NCBI GenBank assembly: GCA_017403085.1
Contig: JAFQOQ010000009.1
Coordinates: 2,096-66,095, forward strand
Source: Alphaproteobacteria bacterium
GTDB lineage: Bacteria > Pseudomonadota > Alphaproteobacteria > Rs-D84
Direction: 5' to 3'
Length of the DNA: 64,000 bases
Positions 57,880-64,000 of the stretch are shown in pieces. Under the pieces are notes generated by a model. It searched no databases. It saw only the letters and a program-made list of their open reading frames with translations, and was not told the DNA's origin. Within the stretch, counting starts at the first letter, position 1. Every line of letters begins with the position of its first letter. The position numbers were made by a program, and so were the translations under genes.

Positions 57880-58608
57880 ATGTTTGATTTAACAGGAAAA
57901 GTTGCGTTGATTACCGGGGCCACAGGTGGTATTGGTGCGGCAATCGCAAAAAAAATGAAGGAAGCGGGCGCAACCGTTGTTGTGTCTGGACGCAATGTCG
58001 CAAAAATGAACGCAGAATTTGACGACAGTTTCATCAAAATTCCATGTGATTTGGCATCTGATGGTGGGGCGGTTGAACTGATTATGGATACAATCGAAAA
58101 GGCAGGGAAATTAGATATCTTAATCAATAACGCAGGTATTACCAAAGACACGCTGTTGATGCGCATGACAGATGAACAATTTGACGACGTTATTAACACT
58201 AACTTGCGTTCATGCTTTAAAATGTGTCGCGCCGCAATTATGCCAATGATGAAAAATCGATTTGGACGTATTATCAATATGGCGTCTATCATCGGAACTA
58301 TTGGCGGGGCAGGGCAGGCAAACTATGCCGCGTCCAAGGGCGGCATGATTGCAATGACAAAATCCATCGCCGCAGAAGTTGGCAGTCGTGGTATCACTGC
58401 AAATGCAATTGCGCCTGGGTTTATAAAAACACCAATGACAGATGTTTTGCCCGAAGAATTAAAAAAGACATATTTGTCACAAATCCCAGCAGGTCGATTT
58501 GGCGAACCAGAAGACGTTGCAAATGCATGTGTGTTCTTGGCGTCTGACGAGGCATCATATATCAACGGCCAAACATTACATATAAATGGTGGTATGGGCA
58601 GATTCTAA
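57880..58608 (+). CDS. fabG: 3-oxoacyl-ACP reductase
   Basis: TGATGGIG, NNAG and YAASKGG SDR motifs. Confidence 0.93.
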   Translation: MFDLTGKVALITGATGGIGAAIAKKMKEAGATVVVSGRNVAKMNAEFDDSFIKIPCDLASDGGAVELIMDTIEKAGKLDILINNAGITKDTLLMRMTDEQFDDVINTNLRSCFKMCRAAIMPMMKNRFGRIINMASIIGTIGGAGQANYAASKGGMIAMTKSIAAEVGSRGITANAIAPGFIKTPMTDVLPEELKKTYLSQIPAGRFGEPEDVANACVFLASDEASYINGQTLHINGGMGRF

Positions 58609-60251
58609 TGAATAAATACGACGTGATTGTTATCGGTGGGGGACACGCCGGCATCGAAGCCGCGGCGGCGGCGGCACGTCGTGGTGCAAAAACACTGTTG
58701 ATGACACAATGCATGTCTGATTTAGGGGCCCTGTCATGTAATCCAAGTATTGGTGGGCCCGGCAAATCACAGATGGTGGCAGAAATAACTGCACTGGGGG
58801 GCGTTATGGGACGCGCCGCGGATCGCAGTGGTATTCATTGGCGAACACTGAACGCAACACATGGGGCCGCAACACAGGCGTTGCGCGCACAGATTGACCG
58901 TGATATGTATCACAATGCAATTGTTGATATACTGGGCGAATATAAAAATCTGGATATTGTATTTGAAACGGTTGTTTCTTTGGATATCGAACGTGCGATT
59001 GTTAATGATAAATATAACGGCACGGCACTGGTTTTAACAACAGGTACATTTTTGAACGGATTGGTGACGCGGGGCGATGAAAAATTATCGTCAGGCCGAT
59101 TGCAAGACGATGGGACGTATCAGGCGGCCGATAAAAATATTTCTGATGTGTTGCGCAGCGCAGGATTTAAAATTATGCGACTGAAAACAGGAACGCCCGC
59201 GCGCATAAGACGATCATCAATTGATTTTTCTTTGTGCGAAGTGCAACCTGGGGACACGCCACACGATTGGTTTGCAGACGGGTGCGCTGATAATAAATAT
59301 GATAGTGTTTGCTATATCACACACACAACAGAAAAAACGCATCAAATCATTCGCGATAACATTAAAAACGCACCGATGTATAATGGCGATATTCAGGGCA
59401 CTGGACCGCGATATTGCCCCAGCCTGGAAGACAAGGTTATGCGTTTCCCGGAACATACATCACACCATGTATTCTTGGAACCAGAAGGATGGGACAGTGA
59501 TTTAATTTATCCTAATGGTATATCAACCAGTTTTGGCAGCGATATACAAGATAAATGGATACGCACGATACCTGCACTGGAAAATGCAGAAATTGTACGA
59601 TATGGATATGCAATTGAATATGACGCAATTGATGCGCGCAGTCTGAACGACAAACTGCAAAGCAAAGATGTGCCACATTTATTCTTTGCAGGACAAATAA
59701 ACGGAACATCGGGATACGAAGAAGCCGCCGCCCAAGGTTTGGTTGCAGGCGCAAATGCCGCGGCATTTGCATGCGGGAAAGAATACCTGGAAATCGATCG
59801 TACAAACGCCATGATTGGTGTGATGATTGACGATATCACAACATTGGGGGTTGATGAACCATATCGAATGTTTTCATCACGTGCAGAATATAGACTTAGC
59901 CTGCGGGCGGATAATGCAATTGCACGACTGGGACCAATTGGGGTAAAAATCGGACTGACGACCAAAGATTGGTACAATAAAATATTTGATTCAAAGAAAG
60001 AAACTATTGCAGAAAACGATAAATTCTATGCGGGATACATTGCACGAAACGAGCGTGAAATTGCAGCATATAAACGCGACGCAAACCTAAAAATACCAAA
60101 CGATTTTGTATATGCAGGGTTACCAGGACTGACAAATGAATTGATAGAAAAACTGACGGCGACACGTCCTGAAAACATCGCAGATTTATCGCGTATCCCG
60201 GGCATGACACCAGCAGGAATAATGGTCGTTCTGCGAAAGATAAAGAATTAA
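58608..60251 (+). CDS. mnmG: tRNA uridine 5-carboxymethylaminomethyl modification enzyme MnmG (short, 547 aa)
   Basis: YDVIVIGGGHAG FAD motif, FFAGQINGTSGYEEAAAQG, C-terminal RIPGMTPAG. Confidence 0.93.
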   Translation: MNKYDVIVIGGGHAGIEAAAAAARRGAKTLLMTQCMSDLGALSCNPSIGGPGKSQMVAEITALGGVMGRAADRSGIHWRTLNATHGAATQALRAQIDRDMYHNAIVDILGEYKNLDIVFETVVSLDIERAIVNDKYNGTALVLTTGTFLNGLVTRGDEKLSSGRLQDDGTYQAADKNISDVLRSAGFKIMRLKTGTPARIRRSSIDFSLCEVQPGDTPHDWFADGCADNKYDSVCYITHTTEKTHQIIRDNIKNAPMYNGDIQGTGPRYCPSLEDKVMRFPEHTSHHVFLEPEGWDSDLIYPNGISTSFGSDIQDKWIRTIPALENAEIVRYGYAIEYDAIDARSLNDKLQSKDVPHLFFAGQINGTSGYEEAAAQGLVAGANAAAFACGKEYLEIDRTNAMIGVMIDDITTLGVDEPYRMFSSRAEYRLSLRADNAIARLGPIGVKIGLTTKDWYNKIFDSKKETIAENDKFYAGYIARNEREIAAYKRDANLKIPNDFVYAGLPGLTNELIEKLTATRPENIADLSRIPGMTPAGIMVVLRKIKN

Positions 60252-60300: not shown

Positions 60301-60338
60301 GCCGGTGTAGCTCAGCTGGTAGAGCATCTCATTCGTAA
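60301..60338 (+). pseudogene. 5' half of tRNA-Thr(CGT), truncated in the anticodon loop
   Basis: GCCGGTG-TA-GCTC-AGCTGGTA-GAGC-A-TCTCA-TTCGTAA. The following AGTCAGTCGG cannot pair with TCTCA. No T-arm or CACCGGC acceptor strand follows. Confidence 0.8.
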
Positions 60339-60404
60339 AGTCAGTCGGCAAATTTCCTAACCTATTGATTATCGTTGGATTTTAAGTTGTTTTTATTAAC
60401 CAAA

Positions 60405-60542
60405 GGGACAACGCAGGGACATTTTTTACAAAAAAATGCAACAATTTGCATATACGTACAACACAATCTTATGTGGCTGCATACACTTAAAAACCAACTA
60501 AAATTTATGTGTTTTGCAGTGTAATTGTCCCTTGTTTGTCCC
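60405..60542. promoter_or_regulatory. Four GGGACA(A) sites in two inverted pairs (putative arm-type or operator sites)
   Basis: Plus strand GGGACAA at 60405 and GGGACAT at 60416. Minus strand GGGACAA at 60531-60525 and 60542-60536. 11-bp spacing within each pair. Palindrome ATGCAA-CAAT-TTGCAT lies between them. Confidence 0.5.
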
Positions 60543-60671
60543 CGAATATAAATCAACCTATCAAAACTAGCGCATTATCGGGATTTTTTGGTGGTTAGTC
60601 ATCTCATTGTATATGTTGAAATCACCAAAAAACATCCTATATATTAACCAAATACAAAAGGATTATCCAAG

Positions 60672-61721
60672 ATGGCAACAATAGAAAAGCGCAAGAGTGG
60701 AGATGGTTTTGTTTATCGTGCACGTGTGCGTGTAAAGGGCGCTGAGCCCAGAACAGCGACATTCCCAAATAAGACACTTGCCAAGGCCTGGGCACAGAAG
60801 ATAGAAGTTGAAATCAAAGAAGGGCAGTATATGCCCACTCTGCAATCACAAAAACGCACCCTGGGCGAAATAATCACTATTTACAAAGAAAGACATAATC
60901 CACTATCAATCACAACATCTGGACAGCTGGATGTATGGAACGAACAAATGGGCGCATGCAGTTTAAATATGATAACGCCAGACCGTATCTATAATACACT
61001 AAAAACGATAGAATCTATAACAACACACAATGGACAACCAAAGTCCGCCAGCACATTAAACAGATATTTGGCGGTATTAAGTTCTGCATTAACTTTTGCA
61101 GTTAAAGAGTTGGGGTGGATGCGCGAAAATCCAGCGTTCAAAGTATCACGACGTGCCGAGCCAAAGGGACGTGTCAGATTCTTGTCGGATGACGAACGCA
61201 ACAGATTATTGACCGAGATACAAAAAGCACCAAACCCATTTTTATACCCAGCAGTTATACTGGCGATTTCAACAGGGGCAAGACGTGGCGAGATATTAAA
61301 CCTAAAATGGGCGGATGTTGACTTACATCGTGGCTGGGCAACGCTGCAAGACACCAAAAATGGCGACAGACGTGGTATTGCGTTGCGTGGCCTGGCATTA
61401 GACCTGATGCGCCAACTGTGGGCAAAGAGATTATCTAACATCTGGGTATTTCCAAACGAAACAAACTCTGGACCATTTAATATCAGATACAGCTGGAACA
61501 AGGCGGTTCGTGATGCAAATTTGATAGATTTTAGATTTCACGACCTGCGACACACATGTGCCAGCTATTTAATTATGAACGGTGCATCCCTGGGCGAAAT
61601 CGCAGACGTTCTGGGACACAAAACATTGCAGATGGTGCAACGATACGCCCATATATCAGACAGCCACAAAGGTGGCGTTATTGAACGCATGAATGATAAA
61701 GTTTTCGGAGAATCAAAATGA
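60672..61721 (+). CDS. int: Tyrosine-type site-specific integrase
   Basis: TGARRGEIL (Arg I), HDLRHTCAS (His-x-x-Arg), LGHKTLQMVQRYAH (catalytic Tyr). AAAGGA SD. Confidence 0.92.
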   Translation: MATIEKRKSGDGFVYRARVRVKGAEPRTATFPNKTLAKAWAQKIEVEIKEGQYMPTLQSQKRTLGEIITIYKERHNPLSITTSGQLDVWNEQMGACSLNMITPDRIYNTLKTIESITTHNGQPKSASTLNRYLAVLSSALTFAVKELGWMRENPAFKVSRRAEPKGRVRFLSDDERNRLLTEIQKAPNPFLYPAVILAISTGARRGEILNLKWADVDLHRGWATLQDTKNGDRRGIALRGLALDLMRQLWAKRLSNIWVFPNETNSGPFNIRYSWNKAVRDANLIDFRFHDLRHTCASYLIMNGASLGEIADVLGHKTLQMVQRYAHISDSHKGGVIERMNDKVFGESK

Positions 61722-62386
61722 CACAACAATTACCTTTTGCCGATATTTTTCCACACTTGCATCCAATGCAAAAATTCACACAGCCCAACTATCCAATACT
61801 AGCTGATATTTTATTGGAATACGCACAAGATTTGGCACACTATCGTGAAAACTATCTAGATGAAGACAGAATTGCTAACGCACTGGATTGGATAAAACAA
61901 CATGGCGATTTAGACCATAAAACAATTAAACGCATCATCGAGCATTTTAGCATTCTTGACTTTAAATCAGATGTAAAAATTCAGACCTATAACAAACAAT
62001 GGATTGTATGGTTATTCGTTATTGGTGCTTTCATCCTGATAAATCAAGCAATAGAAAATGACGACATCAATACCGTTAAAAGTGATATTCAAACATGCTT
62101 AAAAAACGCACATGACTATAAAAGATTGTGGGGCGAAAGAAAAGGTCGTTATAAAGGCGCAAGCAAGACAAACGCCAAGAAAGCTGAAATAAAAAAAACA
62201 GTGCTAAAAATAACACGAGAAACAAACAATGCAAACCCCGCCAAATCCGATGATGAAAAACTAATCATCATAAAAAACAAATTTAAAAAAACATCCCCCA
62301 ACAGGGATTTCCCTTACAAAGATTCTAGTTTTACTAGAAACGATGATGCAAACATGTTTGCCCAGGCTGCAAAGCACAAGCCATAA
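61718..62386 (+). CDS. Hypothetical element protein with one TM helix and a Lys-rich tail
   Basis: ATGA overlap with the int stop. WIVWLFVIGAFILI hydrophobic segment. No family recognised. Confidence 0.55.
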   Translation: MTQQLPFADIFPHLHPMQKFTQPNYPILADILLEYAQDLAHYRENYLDEDRIANALDWIKQHGDLDHKTIKRIIEHFSILDFKSDVKIQTYNKQWIVWLFVIGAFILINQAIENDDINTVKSDIQTCLKNAHDYKRLWGERKGRYKGASKTNAKKAEIKKTVLKITRETNNANPAKSDDEKLIIIKNKFKKTSPNRDFPYKDSSFTRNDDANMFAQAAKHKP

Positions 62387-62495
62387 AGCCATCACGCTAG
62401 CGTTATGGGCAACCGCCTTGATAGGCGGTATTTTTGCATATATATTTGCCATGAACCCGCGGGCAAACCATAACCAAAAACCTAAGGAGAAAACA

Positions 62496-62726
62496 ATGGC
62501 AAATATGACGCCCAACTTTAAAACCATTCGGCAATTTGCTGAATCATATCCTGCATTTACGCAGGGCTCGCTGCGTGATTTGGTGTTTTATGCGGACTAT
62601 AACGGATTAAATCAATTTGATGCAATCCGTCGTGTCGGCGCAAAAATACTAATAAACGTTGATAATTTCTTTCGGTGGGTTGATACCAACCCTGCAAGCA
62701 AAGGAGGGTTAAATGCAAGAATTTGA
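62496..62726 (+). CDS. Excisionase/AlpA-like small DNA-binding protein (tentative)
   Basis: 76 aa from the ATG at 62496 after TAAGGAGA. ..RRVGAKILINVDNFFRWV resembles the Xis/MerR-type winged HTH C-terminus. Confidence 0.45.
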   Translation: MANMTPNFKTIRQFAESYPAFTQGSLRDLVFYADYNGLNQFDAIRRVGAKILINVDNFFRWVDTNPASKGGLNARI

Positions 62727-63777
62727 CCCACAATACGAAAATGATTATCTGGACAATATCACCGGCGATGATGATATGGACAACACCGTTCAAAAACCGA
62801 ACATCTTTTCTGTTGGCGATTTATTGGACATGGATTTACCAGAAATCAAATGGCTGCTGTATCCATTTATTCCACAAAAGGGTGTTTGTATGATTTCCGC
62901 ACCACGAGGTGTCGGGAAATCATTCTTGGCGATGACAATGGCTATTTCAATCGCATCATCTATTGACTTTCTGGGGTTCAAAACAGAACAACAATACAAA
63001 GTCCTTTATATAGATGGCGAAATGAACGGCAAGATGCTGCAAGAACGTTTTTCTAAGTTGATTGACGGCATGGAAAAAGATGGCGCAACTGTTAATCGTG
63101 ATAATCTGAAAATATTCGGATGCGATTTTCAGGGCCGTTCATCTATGCCTGATATGTCAAAGCCAACACACTGGCGTATCATAGAAAACGCTATCAACAG
63201 CATTGGTGGTGTTGACCTTATCATTCTGGATAATGTATTTACCCTGTACGGTTGTCAGGACGAAAATGCTGCATCCAGCTGGCAGGCGTTTAATCGATGG
63301 TCTGTCAGCCAGCGCATACAAAATCGTTCTGTCTTGTGGATACACCATACGGGCAAGGATACAGAAAAGGGCGGACGTGGTTCGTCAGCGATTGAAACGC
63401 TGATGGATTCGTCCATACTGCTAAAAAGGCCTGCTGGATATAACCAACAAGATGGCGCAGCGGTTGTTGTAGAATACACAAAAAGCCGCAGCGTTGCTGG
63501 CGATGCGGTTGCAAAATTTGTAATCAAATTGTGTGGCACAGATAATATACTTTATTGGACAGTCGCAAAAACAGACGAGCAATCCGAATTGGATGACTTG
63601 TTGGATTTTGTCGATAACAAAGGCATGGACGTTATGGAAATTTCAAAAGAAACCGGCATGTCCAAGTCTGCAATATATCGAAAATTTCATGCAGCTGGAA
63701 TAAAGGATGTATCCGCACGCGCAAAGCTTGCCAAACAAAAACAAGCCGAAGACACAAAATCTTTAATTGATATCTGA
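62713..63777 (+). CDS. RepA/AAA_25-like RecA-fold ATPase with C-terminal HTH
   Basis: Walker A SAPRGVGKSF, Walker B LIILDN, WIHHTGKD sensor-like motif, C-terminal ISKETGMSKSAIYRKF HTH. AAGGAGGG SD. Confidence 0.7.
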   Translation: MQEFDPQYENDYLDNITGDDDMDNTVQKPNIFSVGDLLDMDLPEIKWLLYPFIPQKGVCMISAPRGVGKSFLAMTMAISIASSIDFLGFKTEQQYKVLYIDGEMNGKMLQERFSKLIDGMEKDGATVNRDNLKIFGCDFQGRSSMPDMSKPTHWRIIENAINSIGGVDLIILDNVFTLYGCQDENAASSWQAFNRWSVSQRIQNRSVLWIHHTGKDTEKGGRGSSAIETLMDSSILLKRPAGYNQQDGAAVVVEYTKSRSVAGDAVAKFVIKLCGTDNILYWTVAKTDEQSELDDLLDFVDNKGMDVMEISKETGMSKSAIYRKFHAAGIKDVSARAKLAKQKQAEDTKSLIDI

Positions 63778-63867
63778 TGGCAAGAAAAATCCCATTTTCC
63801 CACCCTATTAAGGTACGGGAAAATGGGAATTGTATTTCTGTCCAGTTTTTGTGGATGGGATTATTGT

Positions 63868-63999
63868 CTATATTTTGCGCACCCAACCCCAACGACTCTT
63901 AATCCAATAAAAGATACAGCCGAGTCCACATACCCCCAGCAGAGGCGAAACAAAGAAAAAGCATATTGTTAATCCGGTTAAGATAAGAAAACTAAGCAT
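63868..63999 (-). CDS. Small hydrophobic ORF at the window edge (very tentative; may extend beyond the window)
   Basis: Hand translation MLSFLILTGLTICFFFVSPLLGVCGLGCIFYWIKSRWGWVRKI. Below the 60-aa track cutoff. Confidence 0.2.
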   Translation of the reverse strand: MLSFLILTGLTICFFFVSPLLGVCGLGCIFYWIKSRWGWVRKI

Positions 64000-64000
64000 A

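Follow-up and report, generated by a model that had tools for sequence, protein, structure and literature searches.

A 6.5-kb integrase-encoding element most likely inserted in the anticodon loop of the single tRNA-Thr(CGT) gene of a gut alphaproteobacterium, with a complete tRNA-Thr(CGT) as cargo

The window, that is, the whole stretch of 64,000 nucleotides that we analysed, corresponds to C5:2096-66095 of G000, a 1.04-Mb metagenome-assembled genome (MAG) of 34 contigs, 92% complete and with 4% contamination. Near its right end, 50 bp after the end of mnmG, positions 60301-60338 read GCCGGTG TA GCTC AGCTGGTA GAGC A TCTCA TTCGTAA. These are nt 1-38 of a tRNA-Thr(CGT), namely the 5' strand of the acceptor stem, the D-arm, the 5' strand of the anticodon stem (TCTCA) and, at the very end, the loop TTCGTAA. 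Where the 3' strand of the anticodon stem was expected, AGTCAGTCGGC directly followed the loop at 60338, and a tyrosine integrase gene (int) lay 334 bp away. The features are as follows:

58608..60251, + strand: mnmG/gidA, conserved on the left side of the attachment site (PF01134 GIDA, 2.6e-142)
60301..60338, + strand: attL, made up of the displaced 5' half of the host tRNA-Thr(CGT), nt 1-38 (100% match to the rejoined host tRNA)
60332..60338: crossover core TTCGTAA, identical to the anticodon loop, the sole repeat common to both insert ends
60339..64000, + strand: left 3.66 kb of the element, whose bounds are set by the two tRNA halves and which extends as far as window-equivalent 66840 (C5 68935)
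60405-60410 and 60416-60421 (direct), 60526-60531 and 60537-60542 (inverted): four GGGACA, putative arm-type integrase sites, enriched and conserved
60586..60645, + strand: conserved block with the likely int promoter, TTGAAA-18-TATATT at 60616-60645 (promoter scan); it holds 60592-60608
60672..61721, + strand: tyrosine integrase, 349 aa (PF00589, 3.1e-29; phrog_1 integrase, 8e-69)
61718..62386, + strand: 222-aa ORF overlapping the int stop codon, without Pfam or PHROG match
62496..62726, + strand: 76-aa ORF, predicted as a gene in other assemblies that contain the element, without Pfam match at E<=1
62713..63777, + strand: RepA-like P-loop ATPase (AAA_25; PF13481, 1.4e-28; PHROG primase/helicase families)

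Neither ARAGORN nor the Infernal/Rfam tRNA model, even at E<=10, called a tRNA at 60301-60338. This agreed with the first-pass annotation, which had read the fragment as the 5' part of a tRNA-Thr(CGT) ending in its loop at an integrase junction, with the 3' part missing. The same annotation had advised looking for that 3' part beyond nt 64000, and BLAST together with a pattern search located it there. The 3' half, TTCGTAA-TGAGG-GGGTC-GTAGGTTCAAGTCCTAT-CACCGGCACCA (nt 32-76, attR), lies on the + strand at C5 68936-68981, that is, at window-equivalent 66841-66886, just beyond the window and 6,502 bp downstream of the 5' half. ARAGORN and Rfam called no tRNA at attR either. Once the 6,502 bp were removed, the two halves formed a tRNA-Thr(cgt) of 76 nt that folds as a perfect cloverleaf. 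The junctions read CATCTCA/TTCGTAA/AGTCAG for attL and CTATCC/TTCGTAA/TGAGGG for attR. Because the repeat between element and target is the 7-bp anticodon loop only, no tRNA is rebuilt at either junction.

Comparison with island-free relatives, which had also been suggested as a way to define attB, showed the empty site. Of the 150 genomes sampled from the family, 132 had one copy of the uninterrupted host-type sequence GAGCATCTCATTCGTAATGAGGGGGTC, as did 102 of the 108 of the genus; G000 had none. In three relatives (G095, G096, and G075), the mnmG flank was directly followed by an intact tRNA-Thr(CGT), and the left and right flanks of G000 aligned contiguously on all three, overlapping by exactly the 7-bp core. 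ARAGORN reported one tRNA-Thr(cgt) in the whole G000 genome, at C5 c68571-68646, 6.1 kb downstream of the fragment; a second one may possibly lie on unassembled DNA, the MAG being 92% complete. ACG usage was 13.6 per 1000 codons, and the tRNA-Thr(UGU) present in G000 might read this codon by wobble.

The element delimited by the two halves measures 6,502 bp (C5 62434-68935) and has 8 ORFs. In Pfam and PHROG, family matches were confined to the integrase, the RepA-like ATPase and a Bro-N domain protein; besides the genes listed above, the element has two minus-strand ORFs with no assigned function, a 106-aa ORF and the Bro-N gene. The closest solved relative of the integrase was the HP1 integrase (7e-12), and phage HP1 crosses over in a tRNA anticodon loop. 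The ATPase, which gave weak matches to phage RepA-like genes, is likely the replication helicase of the element, judging from its families. We considered the 76-aa ORF as a Xis/AlpA-like protein, and dropped this idea as it had no Pfam match at E<=1. Searches of Pfam and PHROG revealed no capsid, tail, lysis, or conjugation genes in the 6.5 kb, and phage collections held no close relatives of the element, only the weak RepA-like matches. We infer that the element has kept its mobility. None of 10 ENA/Logan assemblies of the element showed an attP or attB junction; an attP pattern gave 0 matches in JGI metagenomes and IMG/VR, where the attL control likewise gave 0, which makes that search uninformative.

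Incidentally, we noticed a sub-threshold match to the Rfam sRNA-Xcc1 family inside the element and outside the window, between the 229-aa and 106-aa ORFs (L001 7218-7307, minus strand, equal to C5 67218-67307; 42.1 bits for a gathering score of 53, E = 5e-5). We also noticed that elements with 100%-identical integrases (L084, L085, L088-L090, and L092; e.g., L084 11191-13727) come in two cargo versions. The first has the Bro-N gene, as in G000. In the second, five small ORFs stand in place of that half, among them one for a SocA_Panacea-domain protein beside a 118-aa ORF, an arrangement that resembles a toxin-antitoxin pair.

The int-proximal arm carried the four GGGACA repeats listed above, and three more were present in the distal arm, outside the window. 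This hexamer occurred 19 times in L001 against 6.8 expected, and none of 200 shuffles reached 19. Its positions were kept in the related elements of G267 and G099, and GGGCCA stood in its place in the more distant element of G150. Such a pattern is as expected of arm-type sites, and these repeats would be the arm sites of the integrase. The conserved block upstream of int was also kept in G267 and G099, where the promoter reads TTGACA. Within this block, immediately upstream of the best int promoter candidate, lies the stretch TGGTTAGTCATCTCATT (60592-60608), which the first-pass annotation had taken for a second partial copy of the break region. This claim did not hold. Of its 17 positions, only 13 agreed with the break region, and it was not found when 3 mismatches or fewer were allowed. 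Among 300 shuffles, 19 gave the half-tRNA a match of 13/17 in the 333-bp arm, and 7 gave a 9-nt exact run. Moreover, the stretch does not track the target because it stays CATCTCATT in G099, whose target reads CATCTGATT. A relic att site and a core-type integrase site were rejected on the same two grounds, a match that is marginal by shuffling and the lack of covariation with the target. We therefore read 60592-60608 as probably part of the int regulatory region, and not as an att copy. The host tRNA promoter and the 5' half are co-oriented with int, and no terminator-like site was seen between them (60301-60671). Hence it is possible that, in the integrated state, the strong host tRNA promoter reads through into int.

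The same element, with an integrase 99-100% identical, was found after mnmG in MAGs of two other species from yak gut. Their attL and attR were letter-identical to those of G000, and their flanks were only 78-87% identical to G000. Ten further ENA/Logan assemblies contained the same element with identical junctions and at least three different right flanks, and contigs with identical attL and attR reached 172 kb. The layout was also preserved at integrase identities of 77% (G267), 78% (G099), and 62% (G150): the host 5' half and the core came first, then about 330 bp, int and the cargo, followed by the complete tRNA in inverted orientation, 276-365 bp, the core again and the host 3' half. In G099, a tRNA-Thr(TGT) is split via the overlap TTTGTAA, and the cargo is a tRNA-Thr(TGT). 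G095 and G059 (integrase identity 53%) likewise have a split tRNA-Thr(TGT) and carry a tRNA-Thr(TGT), with a 10-bp core and a target orientation relative to the element opposite to that of G000. In all three of these genomes, the cargo gene was the only complete tRNA-Thr(TGT) found. As a side observation, the displaced 3' half in G188 (L003 16175-16220) showed a compensatory T-stem change, GCAGG/CCTGT versus GTAGG/CCTAT, which is most simply a species variation older than an independent insertion.

The sole tRNA-Thr(CGT) found in the G000 assembly is thus carried by the element itself. It is complete (68.7 bits against the Rfam tRNA model) and lies on the minus strand at C5 68571-68646, 289 bp inside attR. 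The promoter scan gave it a promoter, TTGAAA-17-TATACT, and a hairpin-T terminator, both of which were kept in five related elements. Its first 26 nt are common to the fragment, but its anticodon stem reads GTGCA/TGCAA versus TCTCA in the fragment, and both this stem and the T stem are unlike those of the two host halves. Since the anticodon stem differs, the cargo tRNA cannot simply be the remainder of the interrupted gene. An invertible segment, with the 5' half and the intact gene forming a 26-bp inverted repeat, was rejected on account of the differing anticodon stems and of the true 3' half being on the + strand. The notion that the altered stem protects the cargo tRNA from its own integrase was weakened by G099, whose cargo tRNA is identical to the rejoined host tRNA. 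Our main argument as to the role of the cargo gene comes from its anticodon, which equals that of the target in G000, G267, G150, G099, G095, and G059. As the cargo anticodon follows the target anticodon, the cargo gene would serve to replace what integration destroys. This, along with the promoter and terminator, suggests that expression of the cargo tRNA makes up functionally for the loss of the host gene.

Collectively, these data make it highly probable that 60301-60338 is the attL of a 6,502-bp element inserted by a tyrosine integrase in the anticodon loop of a single tRNA-Thr(CGT) gene, with a complete inverted tRNA-Thr(CGT) as cargo. Among the explanations offered by the first-pass annotation, a truly inactivated tRNA came closest: the host gene is indeed split and rebuilt at neither junction, with the addition that an intact tRNA-Thr(CGT) is carried as a separate cargo. 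In the mechanism that we propose, the target would be the host's single tRNA-Thr(CGT), just downstream of mnmG, and the integrase, presumably bound to the GGGACA arm-type sites, four int-proximal and three distal, would insert the element in the anticodon loop. Strand exchange would take place within the 7-bp overlap TTCGTAA, the sole sequence common to attP and attB. With neither junction receiving a tRNA half from the element, the host gene would persist only as two non-functional fragments, and decoding capacity would be kept because a complete tRNA-Thr(CGT) is carried on the opposite strand, inside attR.

A possibility was that this arrangement is an accidental outcome of nested or tandem integrations, or of decay, with a tRNA that is incidental or has another use, such as evading anticodon nucleases, and that replaces nothing. 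The occurrence of several att architectures in the integrase clade indicates that rearrangements happen, a role against tRNA-cleaving defences has been suggested for phage tRNAs (PMC10865867), and tRNA-Thr(UGU) might cover ACG. Yet an accident would hardly leave the layout intact down to an integrase identity of 62%, nor would it make the cargo anticodon switch with the target, CGT with CGT and TGT in G099, G095, and G059; neither does an incidental tRNA fit with the cargo being the only complete tRNA-Thr(TGT) gene found in the genomes with TGT elements. We consider such an origin, which takes in the two successive integration or decay events envisaged in the first-pass annotation, improbable.

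That annotation had also envisaged an element supplying the 5' half, with the intact gene at the distal end. Integrative elements with the target in the reverse of its usual orientation, which bring along the 5' part of the gene, were reportedly described by Zhao and Williams in 2002. The element of G000 resembles them by the host 5' fragment at its int-proximal junction, and true 5'-supplying members exist in the clade, as G226, G207, and G145 (integrase identity 55%) do supply a promoter and 5' half, with a repeat of about 95 bp. Under such a reversed restoration, the 5' half of the element and the 3' half of the host would form a chimeric distal tRNA. An intact tRNA-Thr(CGT) is indeed found near the distal end, and to that extent the earlier proposal was right. 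However, this is a separate and complete gene, inverted onto the other strand and set 289 bp away from the core. The displaced 3' half of the host gene still follows beyond it, and the anticodon stem GTGCA/TGCAA and the T stem of the intact gene differ from both host halves. Unlike 5'-supplying elements, the element of G000 supplies neither half. Strand and position refute a reversed restoration unless the contig is misassembled, against which 13 independent assemblies speak, and we regard it as very improbable.

We give next to no credit to a chimeric join at a tRNA repeat in the MAG itself. G000 is indeed in 34 contigs with 4% contamination, and tRNA repeats break assemblies, the Logan contigs L092 and L093 ending inside tRNA halves; but attL and attR were identical in G000, in the MAGs of two other species and in 10 independent ENA/Logan assemblies, and diverged versions occurred in G267, G099, and G150. 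Just as hard to credit is a split tRNA whose halves are joined in trans, as in Nanoarchaeum, for which the compensatory T-stem change of the G188 3' half (GCAGG/CCTGT) might be invoked, since AGTCAGTCGGC after the 5' half is not complementary to CAGTGCTATCC before the 3' half, the 3' half lacks an evident promoter, the cargo includes a complete gene, and that change is more simply a species variation predating independent insertions.

Returning to integration with replacement, the integrase tree placed the split-and-replace elements related to that of G000 in one clade. Its sister clade holds three types, namely inverted split-and-replace elements (G095 and G059), elements supplying the 3' half and elements supplying a promoter plus the 5' half. 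G109 and G123 are of the classical type, supplying the 3' half with a 46-bp repeat, and G226, G207, and G145 are of the promoter-plus-5'-half type. More distant relatives of the integrase restore tRNA-Thr(TGT), tRNA-Arg(TCT), and tRNA-Asn. We noticed that one integrase subclade, with branch lengths of 0.06-0.17, has only tRNA-Thr(TGT) targets and three att designs (L076 and L077 in G109 and G123; L080 in G226; L078 and L079 in G095 and G059). Tentatively, and with more doubt than conviction, one may see in one integrase clade of this genus a natural series in which attP repeatedly switched among 3'-half, promoter-plus-5'-half and whole-gene designs, the split-and-replace types retarget isoacceptors by a one-base change of the 7-bp overlap together with a swap of the cargo tRNA, and single-copy, possibly essential tRNA genes are permanently replaced in genomes of about 1 Mb. 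G029 might be an example. This genome, from another genus, has a tRNA-Thr(CGT) with the element-like stem GTGCT/AGCAA (L041 9979-10054, G029:C1), located 48 bp after mnmG and on the strand opposite to it, just as the cargo gene is oriented. In neither G029 nor G037 was the tRNA with the element-like stem flanked by remnants of an element. The G029 gene may represent a replacement that became fixed, or the origin of the cargo gene.

The closest known system is tRNA-dependent lysogeny, named by Guerrero-Bustamante and Hatfull (mBio 2024, PMC10865867) and shown experimentally in actinobacteriophages, mycobacteriophages among them (Fionnbharth, LeBron, Gaia, and others). In this system, attP and attB share 8-17 bp, the tRNA is not rebuilt, and a cognate phage tRNA is required for viable lysogens, while sister phages with related integrases do rebuild the tRNA (PMC10865867). 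The element studied here likewise has a tyrosine integrase, an attB inside a tRNA gene and arm-type sites, putative in our case, that flank the core. Its core is also too short to rebuild the tRNA (8-17 bp there, 7-10 bp here), its tRNA has the anticodon of the disrupted gene, and relatives with related integrases rebuild the tRNA. In contrast, it measures 6.5 kb, has 8 ORFs and no phage structural genes, and resides in a gut alphaproteobacterium with a genome of about 1 Mb; its core is exactly the 7-nt anticodon loop, and the cargo tRNA lies in an att arm, 276-365 bp from the core. Whereas tRNA-dependent lysogeny is a property of temperate phages, nothing in the 6.5-kb element marks it as one. 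Going by its sequence, the element has the structural hallmarks of tRNA-dependent integration, with the requirement for the cargo as a prediction.

A bioinformatic parallel exists within the Alphaproteobacteria, where S. meliloti prophages inactivate tRNA-Leu(UAG) (PMC11476347). There too, the host is an alphaproteobacterium, the tRNA gene is disrupted centrally and it is replaced by an element-borne gene with the same anticodon. The replacement gene of these prophages, like the cargo here, resembles genes of other species (PMC11476347). The difference is that they are intact prophages.

Islands and prophages of the classical, tRNA-restoring type (Williams 2002; Islander, PMC4383910), phage HP1 among them, share with our element the tyrosine integrase and the tRNA target, and the clade relatives in G109 and G123 do restore. 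The Islander definition has a regenerated tRNA at one end, a displaced fragment at the other and a direct repeat of tens of bp (PMC4383910). Unlike such islands, the element of G000 has a direct repeat of just 7 bp, regenerates no chimeric tRNA, leaves both parts of the host gene displaced and has the complete tRNA gene in its interior, in inverted orientation. Island finders that expect a regenerated tRNA and a displaced 3' fragment would miss or mis-map such elements. There is also a warning for annotation, as the cargo gene would be counted as the host's own tRNA.

What we describe is therefore a known arrangement, tRNA-dependent integration, now in a small non-phage element of gut alphaproteobacteria. 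This mode of integration, shown experimentally only for actinobacteriophages, is thereby extended to a minimal element that is not a phage and that resides in uncultured alphaproteobacteria of the gut, whose tRNA sets are near-minimal and in which the splitting of a single-copy tRNA gene should matter most. The system is compact, with att arms of about 340 bp and 290 bp, a 349-aa integrase and one tRNA. Such an element opens to study the part of the 7-bp overlap in target choice, as well as the evolution of attP between restoring and non-restoring forms.

Incidentally, second copies of other tRNA genes were noticed on short contigs of G000, for Ser(cga), Arg(ccg), Val(gac), Arg(cct), Gln(ctg), Asn(gtt), Trp(cca), and Thr(ggt). 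The contigs concerned are C10 (52-141), C23 (50-126), C14, C24, C25, C27, and C32; GC was low (37-39%) in C10, C23, and C27, and the tRNA stood right at the start of the contig in C10 and C23. These second copies may reflect further tRNA-associated islands or a strain mixture, given the 4% contamination.
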